DNA of 64,000 nucleotides from Novosphingobium sp. (GTDB lineage: Bacteria; Pseudomonadota; Alphaproteobacteria; Sphingomonadales; Sphingomonadaceae). The notes beneath the pieces are model-generated. The model did not search any database. It worked only from the letters and a program-made list of their open reading frames with translations, and had not been told where the DNA came from. Shown piece after piece: positions 1 through 8,004 of the stretch; position 1 is the first letter of the stretch; each line of letters starts with the position of its first letter. The DNA lies in NCBI RefSeq assembly GCF_030696665.1, contig NZ_JAUYRV010000022.1, positions 2,976-66,975 on the forward strand, read 5' to 3'. A program made the position numbers and the translations under genes.

Positions 1-896
1 GCCCCACCGGGATCGAAGTTCAGGTCCACCCCTGCTATCCCGGGCTGGGGCATCAGCAGCCGCGTTCCCAGGCCATCACGCGCGGGCGGGATGACCCGCG
101 GCCCGTCCTTTTCGGCCCAGAGCAGATAAAGCGTCGACCCGTCCGGCCCGATAAACCACGATAGGTCCACGCGCCCTCGCTCGGTCGAAAGCGCACCATG
201 CTTGACCGCATTGGTGCACAGTTCATGCAACCCCATGATCAGCGGAATGCAGCTTTCTGTCGGCAGAAGACACTGCTCTCCGGCCATCTTGATCCGCCCG
301 TCTCGGTCAAACGGTGCCAAGGTCTGCTGCGCCAGTTGCGGCAATCGCCCTTCTGCCTCGGCGCCGATCTGCAACAGGTCACTTGCAGCGGCCAGTCCCT
401 CGATCCGCTGGCTGAACTCCTTGAAGAAATCCACCGGTGACGCCGCCTTCGGCCCGCGCGACGCGATGGCCTGAATCAGTGTCAGCATGTTGCGCACCCT
501 ATGGCGCAGTTCGCGGTTGTAGACCTCCTGCTGCGCGTTCAGCGCAGCCAGCGCCCGCACCGACCGACGCAGCAGGGCGCCTGTGGTTATGATCAGCGCT
601 GCCGACATTGCAAACAGACCGAAAAACACGATCCGCACTGTGCTTATATCCCTGAACCACGCGCCGCCGCCAAACAGCCGCTGCGAAACCATCGCCGCGA
701 TCAGCGCGAATATCGCCGCATAGCGCGCGCGCAGCGCCAGCGAGGCGATCACCAGGCTCGGCCAGAAGGTGAGGAACGGCAGCCCCAACGCGCCACCATC
801 GACGCTCGACCGCAGCGCAATCGGCACGACCAGCAGGCCTGCGCACCACAGCAGCGATTCCGCAAACGAGCGATCCCGTTCAACCAGCGCGCGCAT
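1..896 (-). CDS. HWE-family sensor histidine kinase with N-terminal membrane domain (3' end runs off window)
   Basis: Not in ORF track; translated by hand from ATG 896: hydrophobic N-terminus, then H-box ELRHRVRN, HELCTNAVKHGAL and WAEKDGP motifs; no stop before position 1. Confidence 0.9.
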   Translation of the reverse strand, partial: MRALVERDRSFAESLLWCAGLLVVPIALRSSVDGGALGLPFLTFWPSLVIASLALRARYAAIFALIAAMVSQRLFGGGAWFRDISTVRIVFFGLFAMSAALIITTGALLRRSVRALAALNAQQEVYNRELRHRVRNMLTLIQAIASRGPKAASPVDFFKEFSQRIEGLAAASDLLQIGAEAEGRLPQLAQQTLAPFDRDGRIKMAGEQCLLPTESCIPLIMGLHELCTNAVKHGALSTERGRVDLSWFIGPDGSTLYLLWAEKDGPRVIPPARDGLGTRLLMPQPGIAGVDLNFDPGG

Positions 897-1240
897 AAGT
901 GCGCCGCTCGACAGTTGCTTACCTTGCAAAAACCGTCTCCAGGGCGCGCGATATCGACCCGACATCGTCATTTGTCCGTTTCGGACCTTGTAAGCCGCCC
1001 TTCGACCCGAATTCAAGAATTATTACTGAAATTCTTCGCCATTTCCGTGGCTTCGCTCACGCGGCCCGCGCCACGATTGCGGTTATTTTGGCTGGCCGAG
1101 ACAGTGCAATGCAGCATCTTTCGGTAAAGAAGACCTGCAACAGGTGGCATCATCATCAGGCCACGGTTGGCCGGGCGGGGGGTGCAATTCCGCCCGGCCT
1201 TCCGGGGAACCGGTAAACTGTGCTGATCGCTGGCTAAAAG

Positions 1241-1750
1241 TCAGGCCTCGCCTACGCCCTTGCGTGATGCGGATGTGCTTTCAGCGACATTGACGATCGA
1301 ACGGCCAAGCATCTCCAGCGTCTGGTCCATCGCTGCCAGCCCGCGAAAGGTCAGGCACACGAACGTGCGCCGACCGTCACGGCCGTCATCCTCGCGTTCC
1401 ACCAGGCCGCGCGCCTCCAGAATGCGCAGCCAGCGCAGTGCTGTGGTTGGCGGAACATGCGCGCCGATACAGGCGCTTGTGGTGGGAACCCGCCGATCTT
1501 CACGCGCGGCGATGTAGAGATCGAGCAGGATGTCCCACGTCGGCTCGCCAAACAGGTCGGCTGGCAGCGCCTTGTGGCGGCGGCGACGCACGGCATAGAT
1601 CTCGCGTGCAATCGCGGTGTGCCGCGCTTGCGCTTCGGCATCGACCAGATCGGGCGACGCAACGGTTTCGACAAGACGGGCATGCCCGCGACGGCCGCTG
1701 GTCGAGAGGTCAGCGCTGCCAATCGTGGCGCGCATGGAACGGACGGTCAT
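1241..1750 (-). CDS. MarR-like winged helix-turn-helix DNA-binding protein
   Basis: LFGEPTWDILLDLY...PTTALRWLRILEARGLVERE..DGRRTFVCLT wHTH pattern; start uncertain. Confidence 0.8.
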   Translation of the reverse strand: MTVRSMRATIGSADLSTSGRRGHARLVETVASPDLVDAEAQARHTAIAREIYAVRRRRHKALPADLFGEPTWDILLDLYIAAREDRRVPTTSACIGAHVPPTTALRWLRILEARGLVEREDDGRDGRRTFVCLTFRGLAAMDQTLEMLGRSIVNVAESTSASRKGVGEA

Positions 1751-1922
1751 TGAAGTGCTCCCCAGTTGATTAAGGCCGGATTGTTGAAATCAGTTGGCTA
1801 CAGGTCTTCCGATCACGAAGGGGCACGCCCCGCCGATCCGGCAGTCCAGTATGTTGAGGGTGATTGCATTGACCTTCCCCAAGGTCATTGATGCAATCAG
1901 GCGAAATGTAAGGCGGATTCGC

Positions 1923-2369
1923 TCATGTCAGGCGCCAGGCGTGGTATTGGCCAATTCGCCCGATCCGCCGCAGGTGCGCCATCGTGCCTGCGAAGAGCGT
2001 GAGGCCTTGTATGCCGACCGGAAGCTGGGTCATCGCAAAATAGCCATATCGGACGAGCGACAGATCAATGATTTTCGCTGCATGCGATACCATCACGATG
2101 ATCTGGGCGGCACAGGCGATCATCGGCCATCCACGGTTTGCCCGCAAGGCAACCCACATCAGCGCAATCATCACCCAAGCGTCGATGACCAGATGTCCGG
2201 GATTTATCGAGAAAAACCCCGGATCGCCGAACAGGGCGTGATTGACTATGTCCAGCCCTGTTGCAGCAATCATGATCGTCGCCACCAACCGTTCCGGTTC
2301 TTCGCCCTTTAGAAGAGCGAAGAAGAGAATGCCGGCAACCACCAACTTGTAAGACCAAATCACTTCCAT
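1923..2369 (-). CDS. Hypothetical integral membrane protein (about 4-5 TM)
   Basis: 148 aa, several hydrophobic segments; 40 nt downstream of the preceding gene on the same strand. Confidence 0.75.
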   Translation of the reverse strand: MEVIWSYKLVVAGILFFALLKGEEPERLVATIMIAATGLDIVNHALFGDPGFFSINPGHLVIDAWVMIALMWVALRANRGWPMIACAAQIIVMVSHAAKIIDLSLVRYGYFAMTQLPVGIQGLTLFAGTMAHLRRIGRIGQYHAWRLT

Positions 2370-2409
2370 CGGCGGAACCTATCGCAAGACATGTGCCAAT
2401 CCGAACCGG

Positions 2410-2826
2410 TCACGCAGCGCGCACGAGTCCGATGGTATGTCCGGCGTCGCCAGCAGAGCCTGCGGGCGGGCAATCGTCGGCAAGGCCAGATCCCATTTCG
2501 CGGCCCACATCGAGCAGCTTGCCGTGAACACGTGCCATTTCGCCGCTGGCGTCGAGAATAGCCTTCTGGCTTGCTGCAAGCCGAAGCAGCGCCTCCTGTC
2601 CGGTAAACGGCCCTACGGCGGTTTCGCGGCGGGCGCGCACCATCGTGGCAAGCAGGTTGGCCTGACGGATCAGGGCTTCATCCAGCGCGGCTTCCGCTTC
2701 ATGCAGATCGCGGGTGATGCGCAAGCCGTGAATGGCAACGGCGTTGGACGCCCGAGTGCTCGGCGATGTACCGGTGGATGTGGTGTTGGCGGCGATTGCA
2801 GTGACAGTTTTCATGGTGGCTCCCAC
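2410..2826 (-). CDS. Hypothetical alpha-helical protein with C-terminal CPP motif
   Basis: Helical core (LHEAEAALDEALIRQANLLATMVRAR), ends DDCPP...LVRAA; alternative start 2814. Confidence 0.75.
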   Translation of the reverse strand: MGATMKTVTAIAANTTSTGTSPSTRASNAVAIHGLRITRDLHEAEAALDEALIRQANLLATMVRARRETAVGPFTGQEALLRLAASQKAILDASGEMARVHGKLLDVGREMGSGLADDCPPAGSAGDAGHTIGLVRAA

Positions 2827-3010
2827 CTGCCGATCTTGCGATGCGTCAGGTCCCTAACAAAAAAGGATGGCAGCGCCCCCGCGCCGGTCATCCGGTTCCA
2901 GAAGGGAAATGTCGTGCAGGGCTGCTATCCAATCGGCCTGCGGATATTCCTGCCCGGTCATCGGGCGGTCTATCCTATCGGCGCGAAACTGCCCGATCCA
3001 CTTCGATCAG

Positions 3011-3589
3011 TCAGCGATCCAGCAGGGTTGAAAGCTGCGCGTACATGCTCAGCCCTCCCAGCAAAATCAGGATCATGAACACCGTCAGGCCGCCGATAAA
3101 TCCCAGCCGCATGAGGGTGCCGTGTGGCCCTTCAAACATTTCCGGGAGAACGCGGTGATAGACAATGTCGTTGTCCCCAACCGTCGCTGAAAGCGCTGGT
3201 ATAAGGCCGACATTGTTTCCGAACTCGGTCTCGGGTGTTGTTGGCACCTGAACCGGAAACTCCGCCGGAAACTCGTCGTCAGTCGCGTTCTCCTGAACCG
3301 GTATTGCACCGGGAAGCGGCGGAAAGCCTACATGGGAATGTTCATATACGGGTTGTTCGTATACCTCGACGAGCCGCCGATAGGCCTGCGCCACTTCGCC
3401 ACGGGTGGCCACACCCAGCTTTGAACGCGCAAACATGATGCGCTGATCCACCGTATGCGGCGATATGCCGAGGATGCGCGAGATTTCCTTCGAAGTCTTG
3501 TGCTGGATCAGGAGGTCAAGCACCTCCCGCTGTTTGGAAGTCAACTCGACCAGAGGATTCTCGAACAGCTCACCACCCACTGTCATCAT
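3011..3589 (-). CDS. LuxR-type HTH transcriptional regulator with C-terminal transmembrane helix
   Basis: LTSKQREVLDLL..HKTSKEISRILGISPHTVDQRI HTH at N-terminus; C-terminal LGFIGGLTVFMILILLGGLSMY; start moved to ATG 3589. Confidence 0.85.
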   Translation of the reverse strand: MMTVGGELFENPLVELTSKQREVLDLLIQHKTSKEISRILGISPHTVDQRIMFARSKLGVATRGEVAQAYRRLVEVYEQPVYEHSHVGFPPLPGAIPVQENATDDEFPAEFPVQVPTTPETEFGNNVGLIPALSATVGDNDIVYHRVLPEMFEGPHGTLMRLGFIGGLTVFMILILLGGLSMYAQLSTLLDR

Positions 3590-3906
3590 TATATCGCACC
3601 CTTGGAGGCCTTCACCCTTACAAGGGTAAATGAACAACCATTCTATAATGCCCGAGTAACCCTGATATTCCAATGCTTCTTTCGTTAACTGAACCCTTCT
3701 GGATGAGTCACCACGGGTTTCTGCGGCACTCAGGCCGATGTCGGCCAACCGGAATATGTTCAGCGCTGTCTACAAGGCGTGAGGCGGCTCGAAATGACGT
3801 GGCCCCACGGGTGCTGGGCCGCGAATCGCCTACCGCTTCCCACCTTGCATAAGATAGGGAATCGGATAGCGCCTCGAAGGGGGCATTCGGCGCAGCATGA
3901 GCTCCG

Positions 3907-3943
3907 GGAACCGTCAGGGCCAGGAACTATCAGGGCCAGGAAC
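3907..3943 (+). repeat. 16-bp-period tandem repeat upstream of the sensor kinase
   Basis: TCAGGGCCAGGAAC at 3914-3927 and 3930-3943; GGAAC at 3907, 3923 and 3939. Confidence 0.8.
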
Positions 3944-3958
3944 CATTAGGGGAAGCGC

Positions 3959-5623
3959 TTGCAGTTCGGGAAATCGCAACGTCGCAGTTCTGGACGGGTG
4001 GTGGCCACTGGTCGGGCCGTGCTGGCGCTCGCGTTTCTTCTGGCGTCGGGGCTGGAGCCGCAACCGATACTGCGCGAATCAAGTGCCAGTCTGCTGTTGT
4101 TGAGCGTCTATCTCTGCTGGGCAGCGGGCCTCATGGTCGTCGCCTGGCGTAGTTGGTGGTTCGATTATGTGCTGGCACCGGGCGCGCAAGGCATCGATAT
4201 CGCCATGTTCGTCGGCGCTGTTTTTCTTGCCGAAAGCCGGAACAGCGAATTCCAGAGTCCCTTTCTTGCTTTCGCGGCCTTTCTCCTGATCGCGGCGATG
4301 GTCCGCTGGAACTGGAGGGCGACGGCCCTTACCGCAGCCACGTTGCTGCTGACCAACATACTGTTCGGTCTGGTCATGTATCAAACCGGGTTCGACATCG
4401 ATCTGCTCCGGCTCTCCCGGCGCACCCTCTACATCGTGCTGCTGTCGACCATGCTGATCTGGCTCAGCATGTCGCGTGGGGGAGGGCGGATGGCCGCCAT
4501 GCCAGAGCCGCAGGGTATTCCAGGAGAGCGGCGCGATGTCGTGGTTGATGGCGCGCTTGCGTTTATCGCTTCATTGCTTGGCGCACGCAGGGCTGCCTTT
4601 GCCTTTGCCAGCAGCGAAGAGCCGTGGATCGAACTGCGCGAATTTGGCCCGCAAGGCGTTGCGTCGCGTCGGCTAGAACCCGAGCAGTTCGCCGACGAAC
4701 TGCTTGCGCCGCAGCGCACCGCACTTTTCGATATGGTCAGGCAACGCGAACTCGTCGAAGCCGATGACAGCGGTCTGCTGGTGGCGAAGTCCGGGACGAA
4801 TGCCGGTACGGCAAGTCCACGACTGGCGCTTCAACTTGGCATCGATGAAGGATTGATCGTGCCGGTCCAGTGCGCCACCGGCTCGGGGCAGATCCTTGTG
4901 TGGGATGCCGAAAGCCTGAGCTTTGACGATATTCGGTTGCTCGCGGCATTTGGCGATGAACTCGCACGCGCGCTTGATCGGGAAGAGATGGCGCGGCTGG
5001 CGCGGGTCGGGGTTGAAACCGGGGTCCGGCAGGCGGTGGCGCGCGATCTGCATGACAGTGTCGCCCAGTTTCTGGCGGGTACGCTTTTCCGGCTCGAAGC
5101 GTTGCGCCGCTGGATTCACGAAGGCAACGATCCCGATGGAGAGATCAACTCGATCAAGAACGCGCTGCGCCGCGAACAGGCCCAGCTGCGCGTCCTGATA
5201 GAGCGGTTGCGGCGCGGCCAGGAAGGCGATCGTCGCACCGAGATTGCCGATGAACTTCAAGCCCTGCTGACAGAGGCCGGGGCACATTGGTCAATCGCGA
5301 CCGAACTGCTCGCGCCGCCACAACCTCTGCTCGTCCCGGTGGAACTCTCCTACGAAATCCGTCAGATCGTGCGCGAGGCCATTGCCAATGCCGCCCGTCA
5401 CGGCAATTGCGGCAAGGTGAGCGTCGCGATAACACATACCAAAGGGCAATTGCGGCTCAGCATCATTGATGATGGGTCGGGTTTTGGCGATTCTTCTGTT
5501 GCGCCTCAGCGCCCACGGTCCATCAGTGAGCGGGTTGAAGCGCTCGGCGGACATTTTGAACTCCACACGGGCGCGGGCGGTGCTCGTCTCGAAATCGCTC
5601 TGAATACCGGAGAACTCGCATGA
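3959..5623 (+). CDS. Membrane sensor histidine kinase, HisKA_3 (NarX/UhpB-like)
   Basis: Multi-TM N-terminus; H-box ARDLHDSVAQ; EAIANAARH and DDGSGF ATPase motifs; ATGA overlap with response regulator. Confidence 0.92.
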   Translation: MQFGKSQRRSSGRVVATGRAVLALAFLLASGLEPQPILRESSASLLLLSVYLCWAAGLMVVAWRSWWFDYVLAPGAQGIDIAMFVGAVFLAESRNSEFQSPFLAFAAFLLIAAMVRWNWRATALTAATLLLTNILFGLVMYQTGFDIDLLRLSRRTLYIVLLSTMLIWLSMSRGGGRMAAMPEPQGIPGERRDVVVDGALAFIASLLGARRAAFAFASSEEPWIELREFGPQGVASRRLEPEQFADELLAPQRTALFDMVRQRELVEADDSGLLVAKSGTNAGTASPRLALQLGIDEGLIVPVQCATGSGQILVWDAESLSFDDIRLLAAFGDELARALDREEMARLARVGVETGVRQAVARDLHDSVAQFLAGTLFRLEALRRWIHEGNDPDGEINSIKNALRREQAQLRVLIERLRRGQEGDRRTEIADELQALLTEAGAHWSIATELLAPPQPLLVPVELSYEIRQIVREAIANAARHGNCGKVSVAITHTKGQLRLSIIDDGSGFGDSSVAPQRPRSISERVEALGGHFELHTGAGGARLEIALNTGELA

Positions 5624-6246
5624 TACCTGTCCTCGTGGCCGACGATCACGGCTTTATCCGCGCCGGTGTCGAGGCCGTCCTGCGGGGCACTCGCTTCTCG
5701 ATCGTCGCGGCCACTGCCAGCGGCGAGGAGACGCTCGATGCGATCAAGACGCACGACCCGGCAATTGTCCTGCTCGATATCAATATGCCGGGCATGAACG
5801 GCGTTCAGGCACTCGAAGCCCTGCGTGAGCGTGGTGACAAGCGGCCAGTGGTCCTGCTCACTGCCGGGATCAATGACCGGCAGCTTATTTCCGTCATGCG
5901 TGCAGGTGTCGAAGGCATCGTCTCGAAAGACGGTGGCGAAGATGGCTTGATTGACGTGCTGGAAAAAGTTCATTCCGGTCAGAAGGCGATCCAGTCCGAT
6001 TTTCTGCAGCGTGCGCTCGATCTCTCGCTCAAGCCCAGCATCCAGGGCCCGCTGTCCAAACTGAACCCGCGCGAACGCAAGATCACCGCGCTCGTCGCTC
6101 GCGGAATGCGCAACCGCGATATCGGTGCCGAACTCGGCATCGGGGAGGGGACGGTGAAGGTCTACCTCCACACCATCTACCAGAAGCTCGGCATCGAAAA
6201 TCGCACCGAACTCGCGCTGATGGCGGTGAATGAACAGGACGGGTGA
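5620..6246 (+). CDS. NarL/FixJ-family response regulator (REC + LuxR HTH)
   Basis: VADDH, LLDINMPG, LNPRERKI...TVKVYLHTIYQKLG. Confidence 0.95.
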   Translation: MIPVLVADDHGFIRAGVEAVLRGTRFSIVAATASGEETLDAIKTHDPAIVLLDINMPGMNGVQALEALRERGDKRPVVLLTAGINDRQLISVMRAGVEGIVSKDGGEDGLIDVLEKVHSGQKAIQSDFLQRALDLSLKPSIQGPLSKLNPRERKITALVARGMRNRDIGAELGIGEGTVKVYLHTIYQKLGIENRTELALMAVNEQDG

Positions 6247-6285
6247 GGGGGGATCAATTCTCCCCGTTCAGGCGTTAGCCCCGGC

Positions 6286-6660
6286 ATGATCGCCCGCACT
6301 CTTCCGTTCGCGCTGCTCCTGCTCGCCGCCACGCCTGCCCACGCTGAATGGATGAGCGGCGAACAGCTCCACGAAACCTGCGCCGCACCCACGCCGGTAG
6401 ACCGCGCCATGTGCGTCACTTACGTGATGGGCGTGCTCGATGGTTTCCGCGATCTCGACCGCCCGCCTGTGACCCCGCCCGAAGCCAGCGCGGGCGAGGT
6501 GCGCAGCATCGTTGCCCGCTACCTCGCCGATCACCCCGAAAAGCGCGCGCTGCAGGGCCGCGAAGTCATCCGCGCCGCCATCGTGGCGGAGTGGCCAAAG
6601 CTCCAGCCCGCCAAACCGAAACCCAAGCCTAAACCCAAACCCCGCAAAAAGCGCCGCTAG
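6286..6660 (+). CDS. Rap1a/Tai4-like exported immunity protein with Lys/Pro tail
   Basis: Signal peptide (AHA-E), SGEQLHETC...CVTYVMGVLD, YLADHPE pattern recalled for the Rap1a family. Confidence 0.7.
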   Translation: MIARTLPFALLLLAATPAHAEWMSGEQLHETCAAPTPVDRAMCVTYVMGVLDGFRDLDRPPVTPPEASAGEVRSIVARYLADHPEKRALQGREVIRAAIVAEWPKLQPAKPKPKPKPKPRKKRR

Positions 6661-7499
6661 GCCGGTTCCAGCAGCACACTCGCCGCTGCCGTATTGCTGA
6701 TCGGGATGTGGTAGTTCCGGCTCACCTCGGTCATCGCCGCATCGCCCATCGCTCCGCGCGCGGCAATCCAGTTGAGGATTTCCACCCCCTGCGTCCCTGC
6801 CAGCTCGGCCACCTGCTCGGCCGAATGCCCGGTCAGCGCATCGGGATTGGCGGCAAGGTTGTCCAGGCAGAACAGGTCATAGTCCGGGTTCATGAACCCC
6901 GCGCGTGCCCCGTCCAACTGGTGCGAAAGCCCCCCAGTCCCGCAGATCAGCACGCGTTCATCGCCCGCCCACGATTGCAGCGCCCGATGCACCGCCCGCC
7001 CCAGCGCCAGACACCGCTTCGGGCTGGGCAGCGGGTACTGCACCGTGTTTATCGAGATCGGCACCAGCTTGATCGGCCAGCTTTCCACCCCCGGATAGAC
7101 CAGCTCGAACGGGATCGACACCGCATGGTCCACCAGCATCTTCTGGCATGTCGTGATGTCGAACTCGTCACGCACCAGCGCATCGATCACATGCCACGAT
7201 AGCGCCGGATGCCCTTCAAAGCTCTTGTAGACCGGCAGCCCCCAACCTTCGTCGGCATTGTCATACTGCGGCGCGGCACCCACCGCAAAGGTCGGCATCG
7301 TGTCGAGAAAGAAGTTCAGCCCGTGGTCGTTGGAAAACACCACCGCCACGTCAGGCTTCGCCTCAGCCAGCCATTCGCGGATCGGCGGAAAGCCTGCGAA
7401 GAACGGCTTCCAATAGGGCGTCTCCTGATCCCCCCGCACAATCGCGCCGCCAATGCCCGGCACGTGGCTGGTGAAATACCCCCCGATGATCTTCGCCAT
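6657..7499 (-). CDS. ligB: Class III extradiol dioxygenase beta subunit (protocatechuate 4,5-dioxygenase/LigB family)
   Basis: TSHVP, NDH, GGLSHQL and GVEILNW motifs carrying the Fe ligands and catalytic His; start overlaps ligA stop. Confidence 0.88.
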   Translation of the reverse strand: MAKIIGGYFTSHVPGIGGAIVRGDQETPYWKPFFAGFPPIREWLAEAKPDVAVVFSNDHGLNFFLDTMPTFAVGAAPQYDNADEGWGLPVYKSFEGHPALSWHVIDALVRDEFDITTCQKMLVDHAVSIPFELVYPGVESWPIKLVPISINTVQYPLPSPKRCLALGRAVHRALQSWAGDERVLICGTGGLSHQLDGARAGFMNPDYDLFCLDNLAANPDALTGHSAEQVAELAGTQGVEILNWIAARGAMGDAAMTEVSRNYHIPISNTAAASVLLEPA

Positions 7500-7897
7500 C
7501 ACACGTTCTCCTTCACATGCGCGCCCACCGGAACCTTGTCCGCCCAGCGCACCAGCATCGCCTTGAATTCGTCAACCGACATGCCGGTCTGCACCGCGCC
7601 CAGATCCTGCACGCCAAGGCCAAAGATCCCCGCCAGCTTGGCGAGGTAATAGACGTTCCCGCCCGCCTCCAGCATCGCCAGCACATCGCGCCGCGCCACC
7701 GCATCGCGCTGCTCGGGCGTCAGGCCGAACTTCGCGCAATAGGCCTCCTCGTCGGCCACAAAAGCCTCACGGTTCGCCTTGTCATTGAACGAAAAGCACA
7801 TCGCGTTCAGCGCAAAGCCGCGCGTCGCCAACCCGCCATCGAACAGCGGAATTGCGCGCCGCCGCTCGTTATCTTCGCTCACAGGATCGAAAGTCAT
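7499..7897 (-). CDS. ligA: Extradiol dioxygenase alpha subunit (LigA family)
   Basis: LNAMCFSF..ANREAF.ADEEAYCAKFGLTPEQ..GGNVYYLAKLAG; GGAGG RBS before ATG 7897. Confidence 0.88.
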   Translation of the reverse strand: MTFDPVSEDNERRRAIPLFDGGLATRGFALNAMCFSFNDKANREAFVADEEAYCAKFGLTPEQRDAVARRDVLAMLEAGGNVYYLAKLAGIFGLGVQDLGAVQTGMSVDEFKAMLVRWADKVPVGAHVKENV

Positions 7898-8004
7898 CGA
7901 ATCGCCCTCCCAAGGCTGGCCGAAAATGCCTGATGGGGACAATTCATATGCAACACATACAATCCCGCCTTGACCCAGATCAAAGCAGACCACTGACCGT
8001 TGCG

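Follow-up and report, generated by a model that had tools for sequence, protein, structure and literature searches.

The subject of this analysis is a 64,000-nt stretch of DNA from Novosphingobium sp. (contig NZ_JAUYRV010000022.1; the window, whose numbering is used for all positions below) and, within it, three genes on the minus strand. They encode a tail-anchored protein with a LuxR/GerE-type helix-turn-helix (HTH) domain (REG), a small helical-hairpin protein (MID) and a five-helix membrane protein (TM4). REG, MID and TM4 form a conserved, co-diverging gene unit across the sphingomonads, and this module is nearly restricted to the family Sphingomonadaceae. MID and TM4 belong to no described family. 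The interpretation we favour, to which we give about an even chance, is that the module is a Sphingomonadaceae-specific device for the control of transcription, in which REG would be the membrane-anchored regulator, TM4 its co-component in the membrane and MID a cytoplasmic modulator.

Gene linkage was assessed in 201 genomes drawn evenly from the same GTDB family (Sphingomonadaceae), and 58 modules from the family were read in detail for gene content. MID was matched in 71 and TM4 in 94 of the 201 genomes; the module is present in ~45% of the sampled sphingomonad genomes, often in two or three copies. In 70 of the 79 cases the next gene 3' of a MID match, in the same orientation, is TM4, far more often than chance would give. 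The gene order REG, MID, TM4 has no exceptions, REG being upstream wherever it was detected. Moreover, for all 19 of the MID–TM4 pairs in which REG was at first not detected, the upstream gene encodes a tail-anchored GerE protein that has diverged, and REG was found upstream of 15 of the 16 seemingly lone TM4 genes when broader models were used. Among the modules read in detail, REG is upstream of TM4 in 57 of 58 and MID stands between the two in ~48. Because REG–TM4 pairs without MID and orphan MID genes both exist, REG and TM4 are the core of the module and MID is a frequent accessory.

The three proteins also diverge together. Their pairwise identity matrices are strongly correlated (Mantel r of 0.59–0.84), with none of 2000 permutations giving a value as high, and paralogous modules within one genome differ from each other in all three proteins; three of the genomes (G012, G073 and G090) carry two divergent modules apiece. 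The position of the module is stable across Novosphingobium, with an unchanging kinase/regulator pair as its neighbour and the rpsL–tuf operon close by. A sequence-only reading of the window had picked out the three genes as co-oriented and as a candidate unit. The orientation is as described, and the proposed co-occurrence is borne out by the fixed order and co-divergence in the family genomes. The source genome contains a second, diverged module on another contig (C22:46415–48043, corresponding to L064:1916–3544, minus strand), which has no MID gene and consists of REG2 (168 residues, tail-anchored), the TM4-like TM4b (159 residues) and wHTH2 (181 residues, a paralogue of the winged-helix protein wHTH described below), with 54 and 44 bp between successive genes.

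Outside the family the module is almost absent. The broad TM4 profile matched no genome in other families of the order, and among ~298 alphaproteobacterial genomes outside the family TM4 was matched in one, which also holds the sole convincing MID match. The sequence-only reading had referred to similar triads in sphingomonads and caulobacters; the sphingomonad part stands, and the caulobacter part is not supported by this sample. No publication on these genes was found. In the one matching genome (G270) the MID and TM4 genes lie downstream of hotdog-fold-like open reading frames (ORFs) and a hybrid histidine kinase.

REG scores 38.3 bits with Pfam GerE (PF00196; cut-off 23.5), which places it in the LuxR/GerE HTH superfamily, and 39.4 bits with Sigma70_r4_2 (cut-off 25.7). 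No autoinducer-binding domain was found in REG by Pfam or NCBIfam, the HTH is N-terminal and the length is a mere 192 residues, so that the protein is not a LuxR quorum-sensing receptor. Pfam gives no receiver-domain (Response_reg) match and the NCBIfam matches span the HTH only, so that REG is not a NarL/FixJ response regulator either. There is also no Pfam match to the OmpR-type winged helix (Trans_reg_C), the domain being of GerE type. Assignment as an extracytoplasmic function sigma factor was considered and rejected, as region 4 alone was matched, without region 2, and the NCBIfam sigma models scored far below their cut-offs. The HTH is followed by a linker of 72 residues (75–146), of which 10 are Pro and 8 are Glu, and by the single hydrophobic segment of the protein (residues 162–180; Kyte–Doolittle value of 2.38). 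About 9–12 residues follow this segment, or 7–9 if the membrane helix is taken as residues ~162–185, and 0–21 follow the helix across aligned members, with no periplasmic sensor domain in the family. These features agree with the sequence-only reading, which had described an N-terminal HTH, a Pro/Glu-rich linker, a C-terminal transmembrane helix, no acyl-homoserine lactone-binding or receiver domain and a tiny periplasmic part. With one predicted DNA-binding domain and one predicted transmembrane region, REG falls under the definition of a transmembrane transcription regulator (PMC10269533).

This architecture is maintained well beyond the window. There are 886 REG homologues, the named ones all from Novosphingobium, and 36 diverse members retain the HTH, a long linker of variable sequence, the juxtamembrane motif and the terminal membrane helix. 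In the Novosphingobium alignment the HTH is the best-conserved block, and Val147, Leu148, Pro149, Glu150, Phe152, Gly154, Pro155, Gly157, Thr158 and Arg161 are invariant. The juxtamembrane pattern VVP..(F/L)(D/E)G..(G/A).L.R is retained across distant subfamilies, with Arg161 conserved in at least 90% of sequences.

The AlphaFold2 model of TM4 has five long helices (predicted local distance difference test, pLDDT, of 83; predicted template-modelling score of 0.78), which settles at five a count that the sequence-only reading had put at four or five. Eight Lys/Arg residues lie on loops 1 and 3 and the C-terminus versus two on the opposite side; by the positive-inside rule an N-out/C-in topology is therefore predicted. 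Gly22, Glu26, Arg79 and His96 are invariant, and Pro25, Asp63, Tyr110 and Gly128 are nearly so. The best-conserved residues, in the motifs G-x-x-P-E-R and R-A-N-R-x-W-P and in the basic C-terminal tail, are predicted to be on the cytoplasmic side, while in the same predicted topology Asp63, His96 and Tyr110 are near the outer face. The protein has almost no exposed loops.

TM4 corresponds to Saro_1240 in N. aromaticivorans DSM 12444, where REG, MID and wHTH would be Saro_1238, Saro_1239 and Saro_1241, and its named homologues are all from Novosphingobium. In a library of 1.84 billion proteins, searched through its representatives, 1155 clusters matched TM4 at E ≤ 0.001. The best 150 representatives are short, single-domain proteins, mostly of ~150 residues, and no natural fusion of TM4 with REG, MID or wHTH was seen among them. 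Searches of Pfam, NCBIfam, PADLOC and PHROG gave no match to TM4, and the same was true of every member of its broad alignment. A profile search of PDB sequences and a Foldseek search of the PDB with the AlphaFold2 model returned non-specific helical matches only. A transporter-like assignment was dropped, as TM4 resembles no transporter or peptidase in either PDB search. In one genome (G150; L022/L070, C1:575173–577509) three tandem TM4 genes follow one REG and one MID gene.

MID starts at the ATG that lies 3' of the ribosome-binding site GGTGGGAG, with an alternative GTG at 2826, and its C-terminal sequence is ...LADDCPPAGSAGDAGHTIGLVRAA, also written ...DDCPPAGSAGDAGHTIGLVRAA; the translated ORF thus ends in the DDCPP...LVRAA that the sequence-only reading had given for the middle protein. 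The protein has no hydrophobic segment and no signal peptide. The AlphaFold2 model is an antiparallel hairpin of helices 19–65 and 73–106 with disordered tails (pLDDT of 67). MID has 227 homologues. Glu41 and His97 are its two invariant residues, and each is 25 residues from the turn; they should therefore face each other in the hairpin. MID had no match in Pfam, NCBIfam, PADLOC or PHROG, and the same was true of every member of its broad alignment. Nothing in the PDB sequences was matched by the MID profile below an E value of 0.07, and Foldseek with the AlphaFold2 model gave no PDB match at E ≤ 0.001, with TraM not listed. A TraM-like or PspA-like assignment was dropped when the PDB sequence and Foldseek searches returned only non-specific helical matches. 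Two genomes (G155 and G057; L059, L066 and L067) contain orphan MID genes that encode Cys-Pro and an -AA end and are remote from REG and TM4; the REG–TM4–wHTH module of these genomes is itself without MID.

The N-terminal domain of MID is conserved, and after Cys-Pro there is a variable tail of 15–37 residues. All 120 listed Novosphingobium homologues have Cys-Pro, in the form D-x-C-P in 110. This arrangement, together with the D-x-C-P motif, would suit a MID that gives rise to a modified or secreted Cys-Pro peptide, processed or exported by TM4, and a peptide precursor was among the roles proposed for the small protein in the sequence-only reading. We regard this as highly improbable. The role is unlikely because neither a modifying enzyme nor an exporter goes with the genes: genes for such an enzyme, for an ABC exporter and for a peptidase are all missing from the window module, and TM4 has no similarity to transporters or peptidases. 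MID also has no signal peptide, and a large distant MID subfamily lacks the Cys, so that the CPP motif highlighted at first is a feature of one subfamily only. Finally, the last two residues are conserved, unlike those of a hypervariable core peptide. The terminal residue is Ala, Gly or Ser in 119 of the 120 homologues (99%; crude genome background 34%), the last two residues fit [AV][AGS] in 111 (92.5%; crude background 9.0%) and are Ala-Ala in 65 (54%; crude background 4.7%). The residue before the terminal pair is mostly Arg, Asp, Gln or Lys, not Leu. The conserved small-residue C-terminus is possibly a degron.

The module extends further than the three genes first noticed, which are indeed linked: it also takes in the winged-helix gene wHTH and, in other genera, a gene for a RadC-like JAB peptidase. 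wHTH is likely a winged-helix protein, judging from scores that are below the cut-offs for MarR (20.0 bits; cut-off 24.6) and HTH_27 (19.0 bits; cut-off 22.2) together with a relative fused to RadC that scores 22.5 bits against the same HTH_27 cut-off of 22.2. In every Novosphingobium locus the gene comes next after TM4 in the same orientation, and it is also present after TM4 in many distant and paralogous modules. Since the second module of the source genome carries wHTH2, wHTH travels with the module, which is more than a shared ancestral neighbourhood would give. A count of wHTH in 18 of 20 loci from a BLAST cluster was rejected as an artefact of chaining through the RadC–wHTH fusion. In the source genome one of the wHTH paralogues is a protein of 347 residues with an extra N-terminal domain, and two others sit between GerE-type regulator genes on contig C20.

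In other genera the JAB gene lies between TM4 and wHTH or takes the place of wHTH, and 46 of the 58 modules have one or both of these genes after TM4 in the same orientation. The module JABs match PF04002 with E values of 1e-24 to 1e-35 and their HNHPSG...PS..D motif is intact. They are extra copies, as nearly every genome has a higher-scoring housekeeping RadC elsewhere. The source genome has a single RadC, outside the module, and neither the window module nor any other Novosphingobium module contains a JAB gene. In one genome (G198, L079:8909–9751) a single ORF of 281 residues includes a RadC-like JAB domain (residues 26–138) and a wHTH domain (residues 215–264); unless it results from a sequencing frameshift, this ORF is a natural fusion that ties both downstream components together.

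In the favoured interpretation as a transcription-control module, REG would stay at the inner membrane and its HTH would reach the DNA through the linker of ~70 residues. The membrane helix and juxtamembrane motif of REG would dock on TM4, which would set the activity or stability of REG upon a cue from the membrane or envelope. As a modulator, MID may bind from the cytoplasmic side to either the REG–TM4 complex or the HTH, and its level could be set by proteolysis through the C-terminal [AV][AGS] end. wHTH might add another layer of regulation or be itself the direct output, and in modules with a JAB peptidase the enzyme probably has a protein of the module as its substrate. The near-invariant pairing of REG with TM4 fits a membrane partner that acts on a tethered regulator.

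Several points weigh against this interpretation. MID is dispensable for the core, as shown by the modules without it and the orphan MID genes, and the synteny may partly reflect an inherited order of genes and not functional coupling. DNA binding by REG, the contact between REG and TM4 and the turnover of MID are proposals. The terminator-like hairpin between REG and the MID and TM4 genes suggests that these are perhaps not co-transcribed in the window, and no convincing conserved operator was found in the three intergenic regions when seven Novosphingobium loci were aligned. In the genome from another alphaproteobacterial family, a tandem MID–MID–TM4 array (L063:2520–3842) occurs without REG. 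The wHTH family has ~10 paralogues in the source genome (E < 1e-10), of which two are module-linked. A full-text literature search on Saro_1236 to Saro_1242 and on tail-anchored LuxR regulators returned nothing relevant.

The main rival is release by proteolysis, in which REG would be a membrane-stored precursor and JAB, or else a site-2 protease or FtsH, would cut the linker or helix on a signal and so free the HTH; TM4 would then shield REG from cleavage, as TcpH shields TcpP. We consider this unlikely. The protection of TcpP by TcpH is a precedent (PMC11323476), many modules encode a RadC-like JAB with an intact motif, and the features of REG itself are compatible with such a route, namely a long and variable linker and a very short extracytoplasmic stub (0–21 residues) that suits intramembrane proteases. 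However, the strong conservation of the juxtamembrane motif speaks for an interaction near the membrane that lasts, and the JAB gene is missing from the window module and from every Novosphingobium module, the source genome having a single RadC elsewhere. In addition, RadC-like JAB proteins, the function of which has long been unclear, are not known to have a demonstrated protein substrate. A further reading, which we judge unlikely, is a new, proteolytically gated route from membrane to DNA in which TM4 would read a state of the membrane or envelope and hold REG, MID would be a degron-tagged anti-activator and the dedicated JAB, where present, would cleave a protein of the module.

A cassette of the conflict or mobile-element type (defence, exclusion or addiction), with TM4 as the effector and the HTH proteins as mere regulators, is a weaker alternative than proteolytic release, as is the peptide precursor discussed above. 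Mobile elements often carry RadC-like JAB genes, and the RadC paralogue matches a PHROG. The module also occurs in paralogous copies, with a tandem triplication of TM4 in one case, its G+C content is ~0.55–0.57 versus 0.62–0.66 in the flanks, and there are orphan MID genes. Against this, MID, TM4, wHTH and the JAB paralogues have no match in PADLOC-DB 2.0, the single match there being that of the generic HTH of REG to a CARF-HTH model, and none of MID, TM4 and wHTH matches a PHROG. In the window the module is not flanked by an integrase, a transposase or repeats, its chromosomal position is stable across Novosphingobium and its distribution is strictly lineage-restricted. We regard such a cassette as quite improbable.

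The transcription-control interpretation places the module near several known systems. Among transmembrane transcription regulators, those that have few sensory domains or none make up a recognized class (Demey et al. 2023, PMC10269533). Like these proteins and the ToxR/ToxS and TcpP/TcpH pairs, the module has a DNA-binding domain tethered by a single helix, an adjoining gene for a membrane partner and no phosphorelay domain, and it would share with the two pairs the logic of a partner that sets the activity or stability of the regulator. The differences from them are considerable. REG is of LuxR/GerE type, not OmpR type, its anchor is at the extreme C-terminus and it has no periplasmic sensor, whereas TM4 is a five-helix protein without exposed domains and not, like ToxS and TcpH, a single-pass periplasmic protein; the module further includes MID, wHTH and, in other lineages, JAB. 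The ToxR or CadC comparison suggested by the sequence-only reading is one of logic only: an adjacent, co-conserved partner is present, but there is no OmpR-type domain and no periplasmic sensor, and the partner is polytopic.

HigX of Caulobacter crescentus is a functional membrane-embedded regulator without a periplasmic domain (PMC13384398). It resembles the module in being alphaproteobacterial and in having a compact bundle of membrane helices, and its stability or activity needs the membrane part (PMC13384398). HigX is, however, one polypeptide with four N-terminal helices and a LytTR domain, whereas the TM4 bundle and REG are products of separate genes with another DNA-binding fold, and there is no homology between HigX and REG or TM4. 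LuxR solos and NarL/FixJ-type proteins have a GerE HTH homologous to that of REG but carry an autoinducer-binding or receiver domain that REG lacks; beyond the HTH, the conserved parts of REG are the juxtamembrane motif and the membrane helix only.

TraM-type proteins are anti-activators of the LuxR-family regulator TraR, and ssrA-like C-termini are degrons for ClpXP. MID is likewise small, helical and cytoplasmic and is encoded beside a LuxR-type regulator, but TraM has no sequence or fold match to it in the PDB searches. Similarly, MID mostly ends in Ala-Ala as ssrA-like degrons do, but in the form R-A-A, or in A-G, A-S or V-A, and not in L-A-A. The JAB paralogues found in modules elsewhere carry the full RadC-like domain (PF04002) and motif, yet occur in addition to a housekeeping RadC.

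Features of the module and its control regions in the window are collected in Table 1.

Table 1. Position and basis of assignment of the genes, REG segments and possible expression signals in the 64,000-nt window
Feature	Position	Strand	Basis
REG, tail-anchored LuxR/GerE-type HTH protein, 192 residues	3011..3589	-	ORF and Pfam match
REG HTH domain, residues 14-67	3389..3550	-	Pfam GerE (16-67), Sigma70_r4_2 (14-58)
REG juxtamembrane motif YHRVLPEMFEGPHGTLMR, residues 144-161	3107..3160	-	Residue conservation
REG C-terminal transmembrane helix, residues ~162-185	3035..3106	-	Kyte-Doolittle peak; position conserved
MID, cytoplasmic helical-hairpin protein, 134 residues, disordered tails, D-x-C-P, C-terminal -AA	2410..2814	-	ORF
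TM4, five-helix inner-membrane protein, 148 residues, predicted N-out/C-in	1923..2369	-	ORF and AlphaFold2
wHTH, winged-helix (MarR-like) protein, likely, 169 residues, fourth gene of the module	1241..1750	-	Synteny; weak Pfam matches
Possible sigma-70-type REG promoter, TTGGAA-17 nt-CATTAT, weak	3645..3673	-	Read from sequence; low confidence
Possible terminator/attenuator in the REG-MID gap, GC-rich hairpin GGAUG..CGGCGC-GGGG-GCGCUG..CAUCC and U-run	2862..2893	-	Terminator-like site

The possible REG promoter scores below the threshold of the scanning tool, and its TTGGA(A/T) element and the next block are partly common to four Novosphingobium loci. The hairpin in the REG–MID gap has a folding energy of -21.1 kcal/mol (z of -1.5). 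Its core, GGCGCGGGGGCGC, is common to five Novosphingobium loci, and the T-run is present only in the window; the hairpin may uncouple or attenuate the expression of MID and TM4. Inverted repeats are located upstream of wHTH (1867–1890; CATTGACCTT-N4-AAGGTCATTG) and after REG (2960–2997; ATCGGGCGGT-N18-ACTGCCCGAT), and neither is conserved in related Novosphingobium species. An Rfam scan of window positions 1–8000 gave no match.

Divergent from REG on the plus strand (3959–6246) are genes for a NarL-type response regulator and for a HisKA_3 histidine kinase whose long N-terminal part comprises several membrane helices. This pair was considered as part of the module and dropped, as the adjacency is confined to Novosphingobium. 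Further along the plus strand (6286–6660) is an ORF for a protein of 124 residues with a signal-peptide-like start and a (Lys-Pro)n run at its C-terminus, which adjoins LigA/LigB-type dioxygenase genes (6657–7993); the gene at the matching position in N. aromaticivorans encodes a Pfam Rap1a (PF18602) protein.

Membrane-anchored transcription regulators are common, few of them are understood and almost all of those that have been studied have periplasmic sensor domains. As neither REG nor TM4 exposes anything outside the membrane, a signal to this module has to be perceived in or at the membrane itself. The module is family-wide, and two of its constituent proteins, MID and TM4, are outside the described families; its frequent linkage to extra RadC-like JAB genes provides a concrete context for RadC function. 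The genetically tractable N. aromaticivorans DSM 12444 has the same four genes as the window. If the proteolytically gated route were true, it would provide the first physiological protein substrate and a role for RadC-type JAB peptidases, along with two new protein families.

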